Assembly: GCA_016194505.1 (NCBI GenBank)
Contig: JACQBK010000016.1
Location: 5,654-69,653, forward strand
Source: Ignavibacteriales bacterium
GTDB taxonomy: Bacteria; Bacteroidota; Ignavibacteria; UBA10030
DNA length: 64,000 nucleotides
Direction of reading: 5' to 3'
Shown here one piece after another: positions 2,819 to 56,280 of this stretch. The first letter of the stretch is position 1; every line of letters starts with the position of its first letter. The notes beneath the pieces are model-generated. The model saw only the letters and a program-made list of their open reading frames with translations, had not been told where the DNA came from and searched no databases. Both the position numbers and the translations under genes were made by a program.

Positions 2819-2846
2819 AAAAATTCAAGACTTCAATTGAACCACA

Positions 2847-2881
2847 ACGGCGTCCCGATGTATTGGGACGCCGTTTTTATT
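2847..2881 (+). terminator. Rho-independent terminator (GC hairpin plus T-run)
   Basis: acGGCGTCCCgatgtattGGGACGCCgtttttat lies immediately after the stop of the 2075..2818 gene. Confidence 0.55.
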
Positions 2882-5584: not shown

Positions 5585-5598
5585 CGTTGGACGATTGC

Positions 5599-5626
5599 AG
5601 AGCGTCCCGATACATCGGGACGCTCT
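5599..5626. terminator. Perfect 12-bp stem hairpin between convergent genes (bidirectional terminator candidate; no clear U-tract)
   Basis: agAGCGTCCCGATacatATCGGGACGCTct. It is nearly the same hairpin as at 2849-2874. Confidence 0.35.
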
Positions 5627-5634
5627 ACAACATT

Positions 5635-6105: not shown

Positions 6106-6250
6106 AAATCCTCCGGTTGAATTATAACTTGTTCCCAGAACTCTTTTCGTTTGCTGGAAGGGCTAAAGCCCTTCTCCGTTTTGGACGCTATTCTACCGTT
6201 AATTACTGTAAGGATTTTAACTCTCAAAAAACATTTAGAAAGAATCATCT

Positions 6251-9153
6251 TTAAAATGACTTGTAGAGATATTCCTTCAAAAACTTTCCCGTGTATGAGT
6301 TGGGAGATTGAGCTATGGTCTCCGGTGTTCCGGTGGCAACGATGCGACCTCCGGCGTCTCCCCCTTCGGGACCCAAGTCAATCACAAAATCGGCACATTT
6401 TACAACATCCATATTGTGCTCGATCACAACAAGTGAATGCCCTGCTTCTACAAGCGCATCGAAACATGTAAGCAGTTTTGCGATATCATCAAAATGCAAG
6501 CCGGTGGTAGGCTCATCGAAGATAAAGAGAATTTTCCCTTCTGTGTGCGATGCCGTAAGGTGGTGGGCAAGTTTTATCCGTTGCGCCTCTCCACCTGAAA
6601 GCGATGTCGCCGGTTGTCCCAGATGAAGGTATCCTAACCCGACATCATCCAATACCTGCAAGCGTTTTGCAACGCGTTTGCCATCGGCAAATTGGGAAAA
6701 GAACCCAATCGCTTCCATCACCGTCATTGCAAGAATCTCGTCAACATTTTTTCCATGATAACGGATTTCCAACACTTCCTGCTTAAAACGTTTTCCCTTG
6801 CATCCCTCGCAGATCAGATACAAATCGGCAAGGAACTGCATCTCGATTTTTTGGAACCCATCCCCCTCGCACACATCGCAACGACCTCCGGGAACGTTAA
6901 ACGAGAAATGCCCGGACTTAAACCCTCGAATCTTCGCCGCTTGCGTGTTTGCAAGCAAATCGCGAATGAGATCAAAGGCTTTAATATAGGTAATTGGATT
7001 CGACCTCGGCGTACGGCCAATCGGCGATTGGTCAACAAGCTCGACAAGATTAATGTGATGATCGCCTTTGATGGAAGAAAATTTCCCTACGCTCCCTTCA
7101 AACCCACCTTTGATTTTTTGGATGCCGGCATAGAGAATTTCATGTACCAGTGTGCTCTTGCCTGAGCCGCTTACCCCCGTAACGCATACAAACAAACCAA
7201 GCGGGATGCGGACGTCAATTTCTTTCAGGTTGTGTTCCGAAGCGCCCTTGACAAAAATAGATTGCTCGGAATCTTTCCGTCGTTTTTTCGGTACGGGAAT
7301 AGAGTTTTTGCCGTTAAGATACCGCGCCGTCAAAGATGTCGGATGCTTCAGCAATTCATCAATCGTTCCGTTGAAAACAACTTCGCCGCCGTGTTCCCCC
7401 GCCTTTGGTCCCATATCCACAACAACATCCGCAGAGCGCATCATTTCTTCATCGTGCTCAACGACCATGACCGTGTTGCCGACATCCCGAAGGGATTTTA
7501 AAATATTGATAAGCTTGTTGTTATCCCGCGGATGGAGACCGATGCTTGGTTCATCCAAAACGTATAACGAGCCGACAAGCGATGAGCCAAGCGACGTTGC
7601 AAGATTGATGCGCTGGGATTCTCCGCCCGAAAGCGTCATCGTCAGCCGGTCGAGCGTTATGTAGCCGATACCGACATCGTTCAGAAATTTTAGCCGCTTG
7701 CGGATTTCTTCCAAAATCCGTTTGGCAATGTCTATCTCGGCTTTCGTCAGCCTGATTTCTTGAAAGAACGCATGCGCTTCCTCAATCGTCATACGAACGA
7801 CATCATAAATTGTTTTCCCGCCGACACGAATGTTGCTTCGTTCCGCAATCGCGCCCCACCGCATTCATCGCACGTCGTATAACCCCGAAAGCGGCTTAAA
7901 AAAACGCGGTAGTGGATTTTGTAGGACTTGCGCTCAATGAATTTGAAGAACTTGTTAATGCCGTCAAATCCCTTGTAACCGTTCATGACTACATCGTGTT
8001 GTTGTTCGGTAAGGCGTTTGTAAGGAACATCCAACGGCACACCCGCTTCGCCCGCAATGCGTTGTAAGTCCAGAAGATTTTCTTTCCAGCGAGGAAATGT
8101 CCACGGGAACACCGCTCCCTCCCTGAGCGTTTTGGTGGGATCGGGTATGACTAAATCCATATCAATCCCCATCGAGCGGCCGAAGCCCTGGCATTTTGGG
8201 CACGCGCCGACTGGATTGTTGAATGAAAACATGCGCGGGTCGGGGTCCTCATAACGAATTCCATCATCAGGGCACTCATAATGCTGGGAGAAGCGGAGCA
8301 TTTTGGCGGAATCAAGCAACTGCACGAGAGCATAGCCTTCGCCTTCCACAAACGCCGCTTCGATGGAATCGGCTAAGCGCGTGTCGTTATCCTTATCATC
8401 CTTGCGGATAATCAAACGGTCAACGAGAACGAAAATTCCCTTTTTGCTTTTCGCTTTGTAATCGGTTTCGTTCAGGTCAATAAGTTCACCCGCCATCTTT
8501 TCGGCGGGTTCCGTAACGACAATCCTAAAGAATCCGCGTTGCTTGAGGACATCAAATTCTTCTTTGAGCGAGCGACCCGGATGGTCGTGCATAGGGAAAA
8601 GGATATAGAGCTTTGTCCCGTCCGATTCTTGTTTCAGACGATCAACAACATTCGAAACCGTATCGCGCTTAACGAGCTTGCCGCACACGCGGCAATACGT
8701 TTGCCCGATGCGCCCGAAGAGCAAGCGGAGATAATCGTACACTTCGGTCGTTGTTCCAACGGTCGAGCGGGGATTGCGGGTAGATGTTTTTTGCTCGATA
8801 GCAATGGAGGGGCTGATGCCCGAAATCAAATCTACATCGGGCTTATCCATTCGCTCGAGAAATTGGCGGGCGTATGAGGAGAGGCTTTCTACATACCGTC
8901 GTTGACCCTCGGCATAGATGGTGTCAAATGCGAGGCTCGATTTTCCTGAGCCGCTGACACCGGTAACAACGATAAGCTTGTTACGCGGAAGCTCCAGGCT
9001 GATGTTCTTGAGATTGTGAACCCTCGCCCCTTTGACAACGATTTTGGTAAGTTTTTTGCCTGCTCCCCCGTTTGTCGGGAACGGTGCGGTTACGGCAGGA
9101 TTCTCGCCTGCAAGAACTGCGGTTTTTTTCCTTTTTCTTTTTTCATTTTTCAT
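6251..9153 (-). CDS. uvrA: Excinuclease ABC subunit A (UvrA), reading frame broken by an apparent 1-nt frameshift near 7850-7865
   Basis: Two abutting ORFs (7789..9153 and 6251..7864) carry the UvrA N-half (..VTGVSGSGKSSLAFDTIYAEGQRRYVESLSSYARQFL.., zinc fingers) and C-half (second Walker A VTGVSGSGKSTL, two LSGGE signatures). The junction ..CDECGGARLRNEAT / NIRVGGKTIYDV.. is colinear with E. coli UvrA in a different frame. Confidence 0.85.
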
Positions 9154-10404: not shown

Positions 10405-10608
10405 GTCATTGCGAGGAGTCCCGACCTGTCCCGATGTTTTTTATCGGGGAGGGACGACGAAGCAATCCCACCTGCCCCGTGTAGCGGGGTAAATCACTAA
10501 AAAAGGGATTGCCCGCCTGTCCCGCCATGCCTGCGGCAGGCAGGTTGTACGGGATCCCGAAAAACGGGATCGGCGGACAGGCTTCAGCAAAAAACGCTTC
10601 GCAATGAC
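10405..10608. repeat. ~200-bp multi-hairpin repeat element with 12-bp terminal inverted repeats (MITE/BIME-like). Shares its core with the elements at 14931-15147 and 55109-55155
   Basis: TIRs GTCATTGCGAGG...CTTCGCAATGAC. Internal hairpins are gtcccgat/atcgggga, ccccg-tgtag-cgggg, gcctgtcccgcc..ggcggacaggc and gatcccg-aaaaa-cgggatc. The 22-nt core ccatgcctgcggcaggcaggtt is identical to 14992-15013. Confidence 0.5.
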
Positions 10609-12744: not shown

Positions 12745-14307
12745 ATGACATCAAAAACAATCGGGCTGATTCTTGGCGCATTGTGTTTTATTCTCATACT
12801 CGTGTTGCCGACGTTTGAGACATTCCTTTCTTCCTCAGAACAATTTATTCTTCAGCACCAATTAAACATTTCCGCTTCCCAACTTGCAGGCTCTATGCAG
12901 GCTGTTTTCGCGTTGCTTGCGTTAATGGTCATCTGGTGGATTACGGAAGCCATTCCTTTACCCGCCACCGCCTTGCTTCCCGCTGTTCTGCTGCCGCTGT
13001 TTCATATTATAGGAGTGCAAGGAACGACTATCACCGAGTTTACGTTTAAAAATGTTCTCCTCAATTATTCCAATCCCGTCATTTTCCTTTTCCTTGGAGG
13101 ATTTCTCATTGCGGCGGCAATGCAAAAGTGGAAACTCGATCAACGCTTGACGCTCTGGATGTTGACACGTGGCTCTTTGGCAAATAATTCCCATTTGATA
13201 GTATTGGGCATGATGGCGGTAACGGCGTTCCTTTCGATGTGGATTTCCAACACCGCAACCGCGGCAATGATGCTGCCGCTTGGGCTTGGAATACTTTCTT
13301 TGATGGGGTTAAGGCCGGGAGAATCCCGTTTCGGAACCGCGCTGATGCTTGGCATTGCATGGGCGGCTTCAATCGGTGGCGTAGGAACAATCATCGGAAC
13401 GCCGCCAAATGGCATTGCACTCGGGATATTAAACACCACATTCGCAACCGATCCTTCGTATCATCGCATTACATTCCTCGATTGGATGGCGTTCGGTATA
13501 CCGTATGTTATAATCTTTATTCCGGTAGCGTGGTTTATTTTGCTCAAACTACACCCGCCGGAAATTACCACAGTGAGCGGCGGCAAGGAGAAGTTGTTGT
13601 CCGAGCGTGCAGCTCTCGGTCCGATGAATATTGGTGAGCAATTGACAATCGTGATGTTCCTATTTGCTGTCGTGCTGTGGATATCCAACCCCTTTTGGGA
13701 TTTTTTGCTCCCCTCATCACTTGCAATACGATTATCATGGATTGATGAATACGCCATAGGCCTTTTGGTTGGAACGCTGTTGTTTATCATTCCGGTTGAT
13801 ATTAAAAAAGGAGTTTTTGTCCTTGACTGGCGGGACACAAAATTCGTGGACTGGGGGACGCTCATTCTCTTTGGGGGCGGGATCGCGCTTTCGGACGCGA
13901 TGTTCAAAACAGGGCTTGCCTCGTGGATTGCAACTTCGTTCGTGGCGTTGCTCGGCACGCCCTCCACGCTCGCAATGATGTTCGCGGTGGTTTTCCTGAT
14001 TGATTTTTTGACAGAAGTAACATCCAATACCGCTGTTACATCAATGATCGTTCCCGTCGTTATCTCTATAGCCGTCCGAACGGGCGAAAATCCAATAACG
14101 CTTTCCATAGCAGCAGCCATTGCCGCTTCGATGGCATTTATGTTGCCGGTGGCAACTCCTCCGAACGCTCTTGTCTATGCGACCGGCTATATCCGGCTTA
14201 AGGATATGGTAAAAGCGGGATTTGTTCTTGACATCGTCGGCTGGTTATTAACGGTAGGAATACTTATTGTCTTCGGCAGTTGGATATTCGGTGTGATAAA
14301 GTTTTAA
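12745..14307 (+). CDS. DASS/SLC13 family Na+-coupled anion (di/tricarboxylate or sulfate) symporter
   Basis: Two hallmark re-entrant loop motifs, IGTPPNGIALG and VATPPNALVYATG. Many TM helices; 520 aa. Confidence 0.8.
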   Translation: MTSKTIGLILGALCFILILVLPTFETFLSSSEQFILQHQLNISASQLAGSMQAVFALLALMVIWWITEAIPLPATALLPAVLLPLFHIIGVQGTTITEFTFKNVLLNYSNPVIFLFLGGFLIAAAMQKWKLDQRLTLWMLTRGSLANNSHLIVLGMMAVTAFLSMWISNTATAAMMLPLGLGILSLMGLRPGESRFGTALMLGIAWAASIGGVGTIIGTPPNGIALGILNTTFATDPSYHRITFLDWMAFGIPYVIIFIPVAWFILLKLHPPEITTVSGGKEKLLSERAALGPMNIGEQLTIVMFLFAVVLWISNPFWDFLLPSSLAIRLSWIDEYAIGLLVGTLLFIIPVDIKKGVFVLDWRDTKFVDWGTLILFGGGIALSDAMFKTGLASWIATSFVALLGTPSTLAMMFAVVFLIDFLTEVTSNTAVTSMIVPVVISIAVRTGENPITLSIAAAIAASMAFMLPVATPPNALVYATGYIRLKDMVKAGFVLDIVGWLLTVGILIVFGSWIFGVIKF

Positions 14308-14342: not shown

Positions 14343-14888
14343 TTATTTATCAGGATTCTCTTCATCGTACTCCCATTGTACCACATTGTTGATGATGTAT
14401 TCATTGATACGCCTCAAATCATCTTCATTGCGAATGACATGTTCCCAGTAATTACGTTGCCAAACAGGTATGCGAGGCGTGTTGCGCAACTGATTGACAC
14501 GTTTTGTGACTGCGGATTTAAACAATCGAACGATGGTAGGAATGGAATTTGATGTTGGTTTTCCAAATTGTTCGTTTGTAGGGGCACGTTGCAACGTGCC
14601 CCTACTATTATTTATTAAGATTATTACGCCGTGAAAATGGTTTGGCATAATAACAAACTCACCTAGCTCTATATCGGGACGAATGATCGGTGTTTTTAGC
14701 CATTCATCTTTTACAATGTTACCGACATCACTCAATATCATTTTCCCACCAACAATTTCTCCAAACACACATTGTTTATTAAATGTGCAAATCGTTATGT
14801 AATATCCACCTTCTTGAGAATAATCATATTTTCTTAATCGAATAGAGCGGCGTTGACGGGCGATTGAATATTTATTCATCAAACACAA
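14343..14888 (-). CDS. IS200/IS605-family HuH Y1 transposase of the REP-associated tyrosine transposase (RAYT) type
   Basis: HuH motif MPNHFHGVI and catalytic-Tyr motif WQRNYWEHVIRNEDD, compare E. coli RAYT ..PEHMHCIW.. and ..QPRFWEHAIRN.. as recalled from memory. A REP/BIME-like element lies 43 nt upstream. Confidence 0.75.
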   Translation of the reverse strand: MCLMNKYSIARQRRSIRLRKYDYSQEGGYYITICTFNKQCVFGEIVGGKMILSDVGNIVKDEWLKTPIIRPDIELGEFVIMPNHFHGVIILINNSRGTLQRAPTNEQFGKPTSNSIPTIVRLFKSAVTKRVNQLRNTPRIPVWQRNYWEHVIRNEDDLRRINEYIINNVVQWEYDEENPDK

Positions 14889-14930
14889 GGAAATTTTATC
14901 TCTTGTTGAATTGTTTTAATTAGAAGCCAT

Positions 14931-15147
14931 CTCAAAAACTATAGTCAAGGCTAAAGCCCTGTTTGTTTTTGAGCTTCCCCCGACCTATCCCGCCATGCCT
15001 GCGGCAGGCAGGTTTTACGGTTCCGTTCTTTGGAATCCCGCACTAAGAACGGAATCCAAAAAGCGGGAGATGCTGAAAAGCGCAAAGGTCGGGGTTATTA
15101 AGATACCTCTCTAGCCAAAGTTATAACTACGTCCTTTAGGACGTAGA
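14931..15147. repeat. REP/BIME-like multi-hairpin repeat (copy A), immediately upstream of the RAYT gene. Paralogous to 48958-49147
   Basis: Starts ctcaaaaactat.. like copy B. It contains a gggctaaagccc hairpin, the gcctgcggcaggc hairpin and ccccgacct...aggtcgggg inverted repeats. The ~95-nt core (..ggttccgttctttggaatcccgc..gaacggaatccaaa.agcgggagatgctgaaaagcgcaaaggtcggggtt) is near-identical to copy B. The terminal hairpin is ctacgtcc-ttta-ggacgtag. Confidence 0.55.
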
Positions 15148-15247
15148 CACAATCCAGAACAATTCGAGGGTTTCAACCCTGAAAAAAAACATAAATCATT
15201 TTTGAGATAGCTTCTACGTAAATTCTTTCACTCCGGTAAGCGTTTAT

Positions 15248-48895: not shown

Positions 48896-48957
48896 ATTGT
48901 ATGCCTTTTAAGATAAGTTGAACGAAAGTGCAACCTATTATTTTAATTACAAATTGT

Positions 48958-49147
48958 CTCAAAAACTATCTTCGTTGCTGGAAGCGGGCTGAATCCCTTA
49001 TTTATTTTGTGTGCTGTCCCACCCCGACCTATCCCGTTGTACGGTTCCGTTCTTTGGAATCCCGCTCACTGAACGGAATCCAAAGAGCGGGAGATGCTGA
49101 AAAGCGCAAAGGTCGGGGTTATAGCCACGTCCTTTAGGACGTGGCTA
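48958..49147. repeat. REP/BIME-like multi-hairpin repeat (copy B), paralog of 14931-15147
   Basis: Same ctcaaaaactat 5' end. Near-identical ~95-nt core (ccccgacctatcccg..ggttccgttctttggaatcccgc..gaacggaatccaaagagcgggagatgctgaaaagcgcaaaggtcggggtt). It lacks the gcctgcggcaggc insert. The terminal hairpin gccacgtcc-ttta-ggacgtggc has compensatory changes relative to copy A. Confidence 0.55.
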
Positions 49148-49272
49148 CAATAACATTTGACACTTTATGGATTTTAACCCTCACAAAAAGTCTATAGAAA
49201 TCATTTTGGGGAAACTTATACTTTCCACGGCATCTCAGAGATGGCGGGAAAATGGTCAATTAAAGATTTCCG

Positions 49273-55108: not shown

Positions 55109-55155
55109 GGACGCCCGCCTGCCGTGCCTGCGGCAGGCAGGCGTCGGGCAGGCTG
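55109..55155. repeat. GC-rich hairpin sharing the gcctgcggcaggcagg core of the dispersed repeat family. Probable minus-strand terminator for tsaC
   Basis: ggacgcccgcctgccgtgcctgcggcaggcaggcgtcgggcaggc. On the minus strand it is followed by cctattattttt. Confidence 0.4.
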
Positions 55156-55275: not shown

Positions 55276-56280
55276 CTATCCTGCCGCGCGTCTGAGACGA
55301 TCCATAACTGTAGCGCCAAGCCCTTGCTCCTCCACCCCTTCGATGATGAGAACATCCACTCCCAGAGCATCCAATTCGCGGATAGTGCTAAACAAGTAAC
55401 GGGCGAGAATATCAATGGATGAAGGCAAGACACGAAAAAAAACGCCCGTTTCAACTTTTGCGAGAAGCGGGGAATTAACAATACAACCAACGTTTTTTCC
55501 TTGCTGTCTGTAGTGCTGAAGCGCTGCTGTAAATCCTTCCACATCTTGATGGTTCACCAATACAGCTTTTGCGCGCGGCGCATAATGGCGATGCCTCGTT
55601 CCCGGCGAGCGATGGGAGAGTGGCTCGCTTCCGCCGACTTGGACGCTCCCGATCACTTCTTCTATCCGCTCTTGTGTCAATCCACCTAAACGCAAGATGA
55701 CGGGCGGCTCGACCGTTACATCAACAACCGTTGATTCCACGCCAATCTGCGTCGGACCTCCATCGAGAATAAGATCAACGCTTCCGCGCAGGTCATCGTA
55801 CACATGCTGTGCTGTCGTCGGGCTTGGACGACCCGAAAGATTTGCACTAGGTCCGACAATTCCTTCGCCAAATGCTTTAATCAGCGCGAGCGCAACAGGG
55901 TGGTTCGGCATCCTCACGGCGACTGTATCCAAATCAGCGGTGACGAGGTCTGAAATCAAAATAGTCCGTTTCAGAACAAGCGTGAGCGGCCCGGGCCAAA
56001 AGGTCTCAGCCAAAATTTTACCCTTCTCCGGCACCTCGTCCGCAATGTCTTCAAGCTGCCTGTACGTCGCAATGTGTACAATAAAAGGATTATCCGAAGG
56101 CCTGCCTTTTGCCTCAAACACTTTTTTTACAGCTTCCAAGTTGAGAACATCCGCACCTAACCCATAGACGGTTTCAGTCGGGAAGGCGACAAGCCCGCCC
56201 CGCTTAAGAACCTGAACAGCGGTTTCAATAGCGGCATCGGCATCAACTGAAGCGATCTGAAGAATTTTAGTCTCAATCAC
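55276..56280 (-). CDS. tsaC: L-threonylcarbamoyladenylate synthase (Sua5/YrdC with Sua5 C-domain)
   Basis: ..GGLVAFPTETVYGLGAD....KGRPSDNPFIVHI.. YrdC motifs plus a C-terminal Sua5 domain. Confidence 0.8.
   Translation of the reverse strand: MIETKILQIASVDADAAIETAVQVLKRGGLVAFPTETVYGLGADVLNLEAVKKVFEAKGRPSDNPFIVHIATYRQLEDIADEVPEKGKILAETFWPGPLTLVLKRTILISDLVTADLDTVAVRMPNHPVALALIKAFGEGIVGPSANLSGRPSPTTAQHVYDDLRGSVDLILDGGPTQIGVESTVVDVTVEPPVILRLGGLTQERIEEVIGSVQVGGSEPLSHRSPGTRHRHYAPRAKAVLVNHQDVEGFTAALQHYRQQGKNVGCIVNSPLLAKVETGVFFRVLPSSIDILARYLFSTIRELDALGVDVLIIEGVEEQGLGATVMDRLRRAAG

Follow-up and report, generated by a model that had tools for sequence, protein, structure and literature searches.

A subclass 2.4 REP-associated tyrosine transposase with a palindromic REP inside its gene, and a neighbouring nested hairpin repeat that is probably separate from it, in an Ignavibacteriales genome

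A 64-kb stretch of an Ignavibacteriales genome (contig JACQBK010000016.1; hereafter the window, meaning the whole stretch analyzed, with positions counted from its first letter) contains a transposase-like open reading frame (ORF) with a multi-hairpin repeat in its upstream spacer. This locus raises the question of whether the ORF is a REP-associated tyrosine transposase (RAYT), and whether the adjoining repeat belongs to the repetitive extragenic palindromes (REPs) on which it would act. The explanation that we regard, with good confidence, as the best one is that the ORF is a single-copy, domesticated Y1 HUH RAYT of subclass 2.4 (Quentin et al. 2018, PMC6006769), which corresponds to RAYT Group 4 (Bertels et al. 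2017, PMC5581495), that the hairpin of its clade is a 28-nt palindrome lying inside the gene, and that the upstream composite repeat is a separate element. The gene and its palindrome are located as follows.

14343..14888, minus strand: RAYT (TnpA-REP) gene, subclass 2.4 (Group 4), assigned by motifs, fold and literature.
14578..14605, no strand assigned: perfect 28-nt 'double-foot' palindrome GTAGGGGCACGTTGCAACGTGCCCCTAC inside the RAYT ORF, the putative cognate REP of the RAYT clade.

The ORF encodes a product of 181 aa when read from a TTG codon, and a 178-aa annotated form that begins at the ATG codon at 14879, matches the NCBI entry 'MAG: transposase [Ignavibacteriales bacterium]' (MAG, metagenome-assembled genome) at 100% identity and provides the residue numbering used below. 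An earlier note on this DNA had reported an HuH motif in the ORF, and the motif is indeed present as N80-H81-F82-H83 within MPNHFHGVI, fitting the NH[IFV]H pattern of subclass 2.4; among 68 homologs N80 and H81 are invariant and H83 is conserved in at least 90%. The note had also assigned the catalytic tyrosine to the stretch RNYWEHVIRN, which turns out to be the GTAG-recognition motif: VWQRNYWEHVIRN of the RAYT aligns with IWQPRFWEHAIRN of E. coli TnpA-REP (PDB entry 4ER8), and the five residues that contact GTAG in the E. coli protein (W94/Q95/E100/H101/R104; PMC6006769) are all kept as W, Q, E, H and R in the W motif W140 Q141 ... E146 H147 ... R150. The predicted catalytic tyrosine is instead Y161 in EYIINNV, which is invariant across the 68 homologs, and N165 of the same motif is conserved in at least 90% of them.

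E. coli TnpA-REP is the sole sequence relative of the RAYT in the PDB (E = 0.004 with the single sequence and 2.6e-5 with a profile), and ISDra2 TnpA matches the RAYT family profile with E = 0.16 only. The AlphaFold2 (AF2) model, built on the 68 homologs with a mean predicted local distance difference test score (pLDDT) of 82.5, has 4ER8 as its closest fold in the PDB (E = 1.6e-7, root-mean-square deviation (rmsd) 2.8 A over 157 columns); the TnpA proteins of IS608 and ISDra2 superpose on it with an rmsd of 6-10 A. RAYT homologs carry the label 'REP element-mobilizing transposase RayT' in the JGI annotation, and the length of the protein (178/181 aa) is consistent with the 194-aa median of subclass 2.4. 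The window contains one copy of the RAYT and no tnpB, and no insertion sequence (IS) ends were found at the RAYT, whose stop codon lies 35 nt from a convergent transporter gene (12745-14307) with no hairpin on this 3' side. The homologs are single genes, tightly packed among unrelated neighbours (housekeeping or hsd genes). PADLOC returned no match for the RAYT or for two of its homologs. From the motifs, the fold and the lack of tnpB, of a second copy and of a 3' hairpin, we therefore conclude that the ORF is a RAYT and not an IS200-type transposase, as the earlier note had proposed. Judged by its sequence, it is an intact REP-associated tyrosine transposase of subclass 2.4 with predicted active-site motifs.

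The GTAG...CTAC palindrome at 14578-14605 had escaped the earlier note. It has the layout GTAGGGGCACG-TTGCAA-CGTGCCCCTAC, that is, a GTAG foot, the arm GGGCACG, the central hexamer TTGCAA, the complementary arm CGTGCCC and a CTAC foot, and is located in frame between the HuH motif and the Y motif, where it codes for (S)RGTLQRAP(T), residues 92-101. Residues 92-100 are the sole internal stretch of the AF2 model with pLDDT below 50, corresponding to a predicted disordered loop. The 28-mer is base-for-base identical in homologs from a Deltaproteobacteria MAG, Meiothermus ruber, a Bacteroidota MAG and a Desulfomicrobiaceae MAG, as well as in the closest relative, while the encoded proteins are only 57-70% identical to the RAYT (70% for the closest relative). 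In a constraint test on nine RAYT coding sequences picked on protein similarity alone, with a median nucleotide identity of 67% (45% at third positions), a single codon was used in 10 out of 62 invariant amino-acid columns, and six of these ten are R93, G94, T95, R98, A99 and P100 (AGG GGC ACG ... CGT GCC CCT), all within the palindrome. Among 120 homologs, the central dipeptide is LQ (70), AR (11), VH (8), MH (1) or SR (1), matching the palindromic hexamers TTGCAA, GCGCGC, GTGCAC, ATGCAT and TCGCGA, respectively, of which GCGCGC was confirmed in DNA, and one homolog translates the palindrome in another frame, as VGARCNVPL. The single-codon columns, the palindromic changes of the hexamer, the alternate-frame homolog and the disordered loop thus indicate that the conserved object is the DNA (or RNA) palindrome and not the peptide. 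A literature search by sequence string found neither the palindrome nor RGTLQRAP.

Several homologs carry an in-frame duplication of one palindrome arm, or a second copy of the palindrome at the 3' end of the gene, which fits repeated cutting, joining or slippage at the palindrome. Tandem duplicates of one arm were observed in three of the fetched stretches (numbered with L), at L122:5272-5370, at L124:5260-5350 and 7648-7700, and at L002:6275-6320 and 6999-7045. Homolog P0072 reads RGTLQRAPTSIQRTPTSTQHAPTSPQHTLT and P0105 has QRAPTIM repeats, both in frame, and extragenic copies are duplicated too; such arm duplications suggest recurrent cleavage and rejoining, or slippage, at the hairpin. 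A degenerate in-frame copy of the palindrome is also present within hsdR of M. ruber. TATTATTTAT follows the palindrome in the plus-strand reading, which is antisense to the RAYT, and the resulting segment (14578-14615) meets a terminator pattern; being 270 nt downstream of the convergent transporter gene, the in-gene palindrome could also stop read-through from that gene.

Outside the window, the same palindrome occurs as a dispersed repeat. When JGI metagenome contigs were scanned for exact matches to the 28-mer, at least 120 stretches (738 kb, contig GC content 33-66%) were obtained, with at least 133 copies among the matches listed, 16 of them within RAYT ORFs and 117 outside. On the longer contigs L190, L186 and L172, the 28-mer is present in the RAYT gene and on both of its flanks, which is the classical REPtron layout; in L120 and L124 extragenic copies lie a few kb from a RAYT, and in other genomes the 28-mer is also scattered between genes. 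On these comparative sequence grounds, the 28-mer is the REP that travels with this RAYT clade, being located in the gene and, elsewhere, also in its flanks and in dispersed positions. The 11-nt arm CGTGCCCCTAC has no other copy in the window at 0-1 mismatch, and matches with two mismatches occur at chance level. The source DNA, at least in these 64 kb, therefore has a RAYT with an internal REP and no visible REP population.

A REPIN-like pair (REPIN, REP doublet forming a hairpin) was observed at 683-768 of the window, in a divergent spacer upstream of the gene at 768. Its arms are GTAGGGCGAAT-TTTA-ATTCGCC at 683-704 and the inverted TTCGCCCTAC at 759-768, so that a GTAG...CTAC double foot spans 86 nt. 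The GTAG foot and the GGC stem base are typical of subclass 2.4, and the stem sequence differs from that of the in-gene REP.

The repeat in the upstream spacer and its relatives in the window comprise the following features.

14910..15220, plus strand: composite nested hairpin repeat, copy 1, with an outer 'A' unit, in the spacer upstream of the RAYT.
14978..15094, plus strand: multi-hairpin 'B' module within copy 1, with CCCCGACCT/AGGTCGGGG as its closing stem.
14993..15012, plus strand: 'C' module of copy 1, the 20-nt hairpin CCATGCCTGCGGCAGGCAGG.
15127..15146, no strand assigned: hairpin CTACGTCC-TTTA-GGACGTAG of copy 1, with the minus-strand 5' foot GTGT, not GTAG.
48937..49222, plus strand: composite repeat, copy 2, between two minus-strand genes, with its B module at 49022-49118.
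49121..49148, minus strand: hairpin of copy 2, GTAG-CCACGTCC-TAAA-GGACGTGG-CTAT, with the canonical 5' GTAG foot.
6117..6290, plus strand: partial outer A copy without a B module, between two minus-strand genes; a weak match, about 75% identical in patches.
10405..10608, plus strand: second mosaic element, 'D', with the ends GTCATTGCGA...TCGCAATGAC, containing a hairpin and a nested C module.
55110..55145, minus strand: 15-bp hairpin with a C variant (55122-55141, CCGTGCC...) and a T-rich tail, terminator-like.

The spacer 5' of the RAYT (14889-15247) is 359 nt long, and the composite begins about 30 nt upstream of the start codon. The earlier note had described here a GC-rich multi-hairpin element of about 215 bp; the element is real and folds strongly, but the unit is a nested composite of about 300 nt, and an inverted repeat matching at 16/17 positions (14922-14938 / 15199-15215) delimits the A unit of copy 1. 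Folded as single-stranded DNA (ssDNA), the composite core has z-scores of -5.8 (plus strand) and -5.2 (minus strand) relative to shuffled controls. A second copy, whose core the note had pointed out, exists at 48937-49222: the 87-nt core is 93% identical between copies 1 and 2, and the entire copies show 88% identity in a gapped alignment with 255 aligned columns and 87 gap columns. The B module, 97-117 nt long, was found in two of the three A copies, and the C module is present in B of copy 1, while exactly these 20 nt are missing from B of copy 2, as a precise indel. All three A copies have the same orientation, each between two minus-strand genes. In total, two full composites, a partial one and separate modules were found in the window, and a simple ORF map places all of them between genes; both the intergenic location and the existence of a dispersed family of multi-hairpin repeats are thus borne out within the 64 kb. 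We further considered whether the composite is a miniature inverted-repeat transposable element and rejected this reading, as the inverted repeat is degenerate in copy 2 and the flanks show no direct repeat. The composite repeat is real and uncharacterized; it is built as a mosaic in which small hairpin modules (A, B, C and their relatives), some of them recurring across phyla, are nested, is probably separate from the RAYT, and probably stands beside it by chance.

The D element is built in a similarly nested manner, with a GTCCCGAT...ATCGGG hairpin at 10428-10448 and a C module at 10525-10544 that is nested in other stems and keeps the immediate flanks of the C module in copy 1. The earlier note had ascribed 12-bp terminal inverted repeats to this element, and the repeat is present as GTCATTGCGA/TCGCAATGAC, although it is 10 bp when perfect or 11/12 otherwise. 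The 22-nt core said to recur in the window does so exactly at 10525-10546, but the occurrence at 55122-55141 is a one-base variant of its first 20 nt. The latter lies in the 55110-55145 hairpin, downstream of the gene at 55276-56280 on the minus strand, and is the only one among the listed copies to show the terminator-like position that had been attributed to several of them, having a hairpin followed by a T-run.

We scanned for the C module with CCRTGCCTGCGGCAGGCAGG, using one genome per species, and obtained at least 112 stretches. Among the matches listed, many belong to Ignavibacteria, Chitinophagaceae, Flavobacteriales, Cytophagales, Calditrichota and candidate phyla, often with several per genome, and they lie in AT-rich intergenic DNA with otherwise unrelated flanks. 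The identical hairpin CCRTGCCTGCGGCAGGCAGG was observed at no fewer than 80 intergenic sites (loci L007-L117, from Ignavibacteria, Bacteroidota, Calditrichota, candidate phyla and others). Matches in Proteobacteria, located in a coding region that is conserved, look unrelated and were disregarded. In a subset of loci, the C module is nested in another hairpin, for example as GTCATTCCTGCG[C]AAGGCAGGAATC, the uninterrupted form GTCATTCCTGCGAAAGCAGGAAT occurring nearby in L028. Flanking stems of at least 7 bp surround C in 17% of cases vs 4% in shuffled controls (mean lengths 4.1 vs 3.7), and the claim that C always caps a hairpin was dropped, since only a subset stands on a flanking stem. The base at position -1 is a purine in 78 out of 85 cases, which fits a stem that is one pair longer and not a target motif. 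ORF clustering near 85 C-module loci revealed no recurrent neighbour and no transposase. A BLAST comparison of the A, B and D units with all fetched loci showed that, besides C, only the 21-nt GTCCCGAT hairpin recurs, and a 23-nt probe from the right end of B had no match in the JGI metagenomes. No paper with the C module or the related hairpin sequences was found in a literature search by sequence string.

Further hairpins of related types were observed in the window and in the fetched loci. A second hairpin module, (G)CGTCCCGAT-loop-ATCGGGACG(C), is located at 2846-2875 (+), 5597-5628 (-) and 10428-10448 (+) of the window; the first of these is a textbook intrinsic terminator after the gene at 2060-2818, and the second carries a 5' TTGTAG foot on the minus strand. 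The 21-nt hairpin at 10428-10448 is identical in a Bacteroidota MAG (L104:7862-7882), where it directly abuts a C module. An outer hairpin GTCATTGCGA...(G)AAGCAATC encloses variable inner hairpins, ranging from the minimal form GTCATTGCGAGCGAAGCGAAGCAATC to inserts of 20-40 nt, and was found in L063, L115, L130, L140, L141, L152, L157, L167, L182, L205, L226, L230 and L242, as well as at 10405-10470 of the window; it resembles the GTCATTCCTGCG...GCAGGAATC hairpins of Ignavibacteria. The GTCATTGCGA...GCAATC hairpin is common in the fetched contigs, with the C module inside it twice. A related string, GTCATTCCCGCGAAAGCGGGAATC, appears once in a paper on Neisseria gonorrhoeae (PMC7593972).

Because the modules sit within one another's stems and loops, we infer, speculatively, that they disperse by inserting into hairpins extruded as single strands, or through template switching there; entry into single-stranded hairpin loops is one form that such dispersal may take. 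A tentative extension of this idea, to which we give a low probability, is that the composite is part of a cross-phylum set of small hairpin modules, not described so far, which enter each other's stems and loops and are, in effect, hairpin-loop-targeting ssDNA elements moved in trans by a Y1 HUH enzyme. The proposed set would include the 20-nt CCRTGCCTGCGGCAGGCAGG, the GTCCCGAT...ATCGGGAC hairpin, and the outer hairpins GTCATTGCGA...GCAATC and GTCATTCCTGCG...GCAGGAATC. If so, the enzyme could be a RAYT, and the neighbourhood observed here might not be accidental.

Some of the data weigh against the reading of the ORF as a subclass 2.4 RAYT whose REP is the in-gene palindrome, with the composite as a separate element. 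The sole NCBIfam match to the RAYT is NF047646 (REP_Tyr_transpos, REP-associated tyrosine transposase), and Pfam PF01797 (Y1_Tnp) matches it weakly (E = 0.0015), with both scores below the curated cut-offs (64.3 bits against 80, and 19.1 bits against 23) and both models covering chiefly the C-terminal half of the protein; the membership therefore rests on the motifs, the fold and the literature. The Y motif ends in V at the position of the P found in the family consensus, in the subclass motif YIxNNP and in the general class 2 motif Y-x3-NP. The REPtron arrangement, with REPs flanking the gene, is absent at the window RAYT. Finally, the hairpin at 49121-49148, with its 5' GTAG foot, is part of composite copy 2, and GTAG shows the strongest enrichment, AAAA apart, of all 4-mers that directly precede perfect stems in the window (5 vs 0.33 expected, at 683, 14578 with both strands counted, 5628(-) and 49148(-)), in a test that was defined after the data had been seen; some functional link of the RAYT with parts of the composite is thus conceivable.

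These last observations would be expected if the upstream composite and its dispersed copies were the REP population of the RAYT, organized as bacterial interspersed mosaic elements (BIMEs) whose hairpins the enzyme recognizes and mobilizes, as the earlier note had proposed. The composite adjoins the RAYT at about 30 nt from its start codon, forms a strongly folding multi-hairpin, and differs among copies in the presence of modules, as seen from the 20-nt C indel and from the copy at 6117-6290 without B. However, a 5' GT[AG]G foot is missing from both conserved modules (B and C), the hairpin of the RAYT-adjacent copy that matches the GTAG-footed one has a GTGT foot, and the composite is present on one side of the RAYT only. 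The closest homolog (70% identity) has no composite and instead carries a GTAG-foot REP, GTAGGGGCTTGAT..., at its 3' end. Co-occurrence fails in both directions: among the matches listed, no RAYT is found within the 8 kb fetched at the 112 C-module stretches, and no C module in the 738 kb of the 120 palindrome-bearing contigs, whereas in other genomes it is the 28-mer itself that flanks the RAYT gene. Moreover, the probability of a chance adjacency is not small, as hairpin repeats fill about 4-5 of the roughly 45 intergenic gaps of the window. A link between the composite and the RAYT is therefore unproven and unlikely, and we regard the identification of the composite as the REP or BIME of this RAYT as improbable.

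An explanation that dispenses with mobility is that the composites are duplicated transcription-control cassettes (a terminator, RNA-stabilizing hairpins, a promoter or a 5' leader) or a structured RNA gene. The common orientation of the three A copies between minus-strand genes, with left ends 12-42 nt from the downstream start codon, would agree with this, although three out of three has a one-in-four probability by chance; the very stable fold, and the similarity of the related hairpins at 2846-2875(+) and 55145-55110(-) to intrinsic terminators, point in the same direction. On the other side, Rfam gave nothing credible, either at gathering thresholds (the window and 18 loci) or at permissive thresholds (two elements), the A and B hairpins have no T-runs, and neither strand folds better than the other, a result as compatible with DNA hairpins as with RNA. 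The nested indels and a 20-mer identical across phyla in unrelated contexts argue for insertion or spread and not for local regulatory evolution. We regard an immobile cassette, too, as unlikely. The least credible alternative, which we give hardly any weight, is that the ORF encodes the transposase of an IS200/IS605-type insertion sequence that is autonomous and has its ends in the flanking hairpins. It could draw on the weak Pfam Y1_Tnp similarity and on the HUH fold common to the RAYT and the IS608 and ISDra2 TnpA proteins, but the RAYT has NHFH and Y-x3-N in place of the DH[VI]H and Y-x3-Q of subclass 1.1, the 35 nt towards the convergent gene hold no 3' hairpin, neither tnpB nor a second copy is present in the 64 kb, and the homologs are single genes packed between housekeeping or hsd genes; with motifs that differ and no IS ends, this reading was rejected.

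Returning to the RAYT with an in-gene REP and a separate composite, the expected mode of action can be outlined by analogy to E. coli TnpA-REP (4ER8). The enzyme would bind hairpins with a 5'-GTAG foot via W140, Q141, E146, H147 and R150, and would cut and rejoin ssDNA via a metal held by H81/H83, with a covalent link to Y161. The in-gene hairpin is perhaps kept because the enzyme or the mRNA uses it, for self-recognition, for regulation or as a reservoir copy; a speculative alternative is that it is merely tolerated. The in-gene REP is constant at the nucleotide level across phyla, with palindrome-preserving changes only, and lies in a disordered loop, which speaks for selection on the hairpin itself, as DNA or RNA (e.g., for self-recognition or regulation), and against an insertion that is merely tolerated.

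Close homologs of the RAYT (57-62% identity) were observed within type I restriction-modification operons, where the ORFs abut or overlap, in the orders hsdM-hsdS-RAYT-hsdR and hsdM-RAYT-hsdS-hsdR. These hsd-linked genes come from Meiothermus ruber, two Desulfobacterota lineages and two metagenome contigs, and the hsd-linked or neighbouring loci are L002:3139-9719, L118:1127-8056, L119:601-7530, L122:2214-8827, L132:9-4736, L206:2448-6328 and L124:1-5627. One further homolog stands beside an N6_Mtase/Methylase_S pair, an SLFN/AlbA_2 gene and DndB. The window RAYT is not in a restriction-modification context. Restriction or hsd genes are not mentioned by Quentin et al. 2018 (PMC6006769), and a literature search gave nothing direct.

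The RAYT is an unexceptional representative of a known class of domesticated transposases that cut hairpins, and adds one Ignavibacteriales example to subclass 2.4, whose habit of carrying an in-gene REP was described in 2017-2018. The novelty that the earlier note had seen in a RAYT from the FCB group (Fibrobacteres-Chlorobi-Bacteroidetes) is accordingly outdated: subclass 2.4 has been reported in Chlorobi, Bacteroidetes, Cyanobacteria and scattered phyla (PMC6006769), and for Group 4 a low frequency in Proteobacteria and a high one in Cyanobacteria, Chlorobia and Caldilineae have been described (Bertels et al. 2017, PMC5581495). In the two papers taken together, the group is a common one in Chlorobia, Cyanobacteria and Bacteroidetes. 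Beyond the RAYT itself, the side results are the cross-phylum invariance of the in-gene REP, the linkage to hsd operons, and a nested vocabulary of hairpin modules, exposed by the composite and common to FCB-group genomes, for which no Rfam family or paper was found.

Among the known systems, IS200/IS605 TnpA (subclass 1.1) has the same HUH/Y1 fold and activity on ssDNA hairpins, but is characterized by the motifs DH[VI]H and Y[IV]ENQ, a subterminal hairpin at either end, multiple identical copies and a frequent tnpB. The RAYT has other motifs, and neither a 3' hairpin nor a tnpB nor, in the window, a second copy was found. The composite is similar to E. coli BIMEs and Pseudomonas REPINs in being extragenic, GC-rich, multi-hairpin, mosaic in its modules and repeated in the genome. 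Unlike them, it has main modules without a GT[AG]G foot, which are nested and do not alternate as inverted REPs with linkers; only 2-3 copies were seen, and its C module is found in many genomes, of the FCB group and others, whose fetched stretches contain no RAYT. E. coli RayT/YafM (TnpA-REP, 4ER8; subclass 2.2, Group 2) is the best match of the RAYT in both sequence and fold and shares its five GTAG-contact residues, so that the same mechanism would be expected by analogy, namely recognition of a hairpin and GTAG followed by Y-mediated cleavage of ssDNA. The two proteins are, however, only about 19% identical, and the REP described here is a perfect palindrome within the ORF, whereas the REPs of E. 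coli, of which there are hundreds, form imperfect palindromes with bulges and border the gene as REPINs.

The closest correspondence is with subclass 2.4, which is defined by the HuH motif NH[IFV]H, the W motif WQ, the Y motif YIxNNP and a median length of 194 aa, and whose REPs, lying within +/-1 kb, combine a GT[AG]G foot with a stem base of three G-C pairs, some with a 'double foot' GT[AG]G...C[TC]AC (PMC6006769). In-frame REPs inside the gene, between the HuH motif and the Y motif, are unique to this subclass and constitute its hallmark (PMC6006769). The window RAYT agrees with it in NHFH, WQ and YIxNN, in the length of about 180-195 aa, in the low copy number, and in the in-frame REP with a GTAG foot and a GGG stem base; the subclass 2.4 REPs in Table S1 of Quentin et al., GTAGGGGCACGG...CCGTGCCC (e.g., GTAGGGGCACGGCATGCCGTGCCC), are of the same GTAGGGGCACG type as its palindrome (PMC6006769). 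It differs from the subclass in having no flanking REPs and no extragenic 28-mer in the 64-kb window, and in a Y motif that ends in V and not P. It should also be noted that the insertion of subclass 2.4 has been called 'highly variable in length and sequence' (PMC6006769), whereas in every examined homolog of this clade from other phyla the DNA of the 28-mer is identical, save for palindromic changes in its central hexamer.

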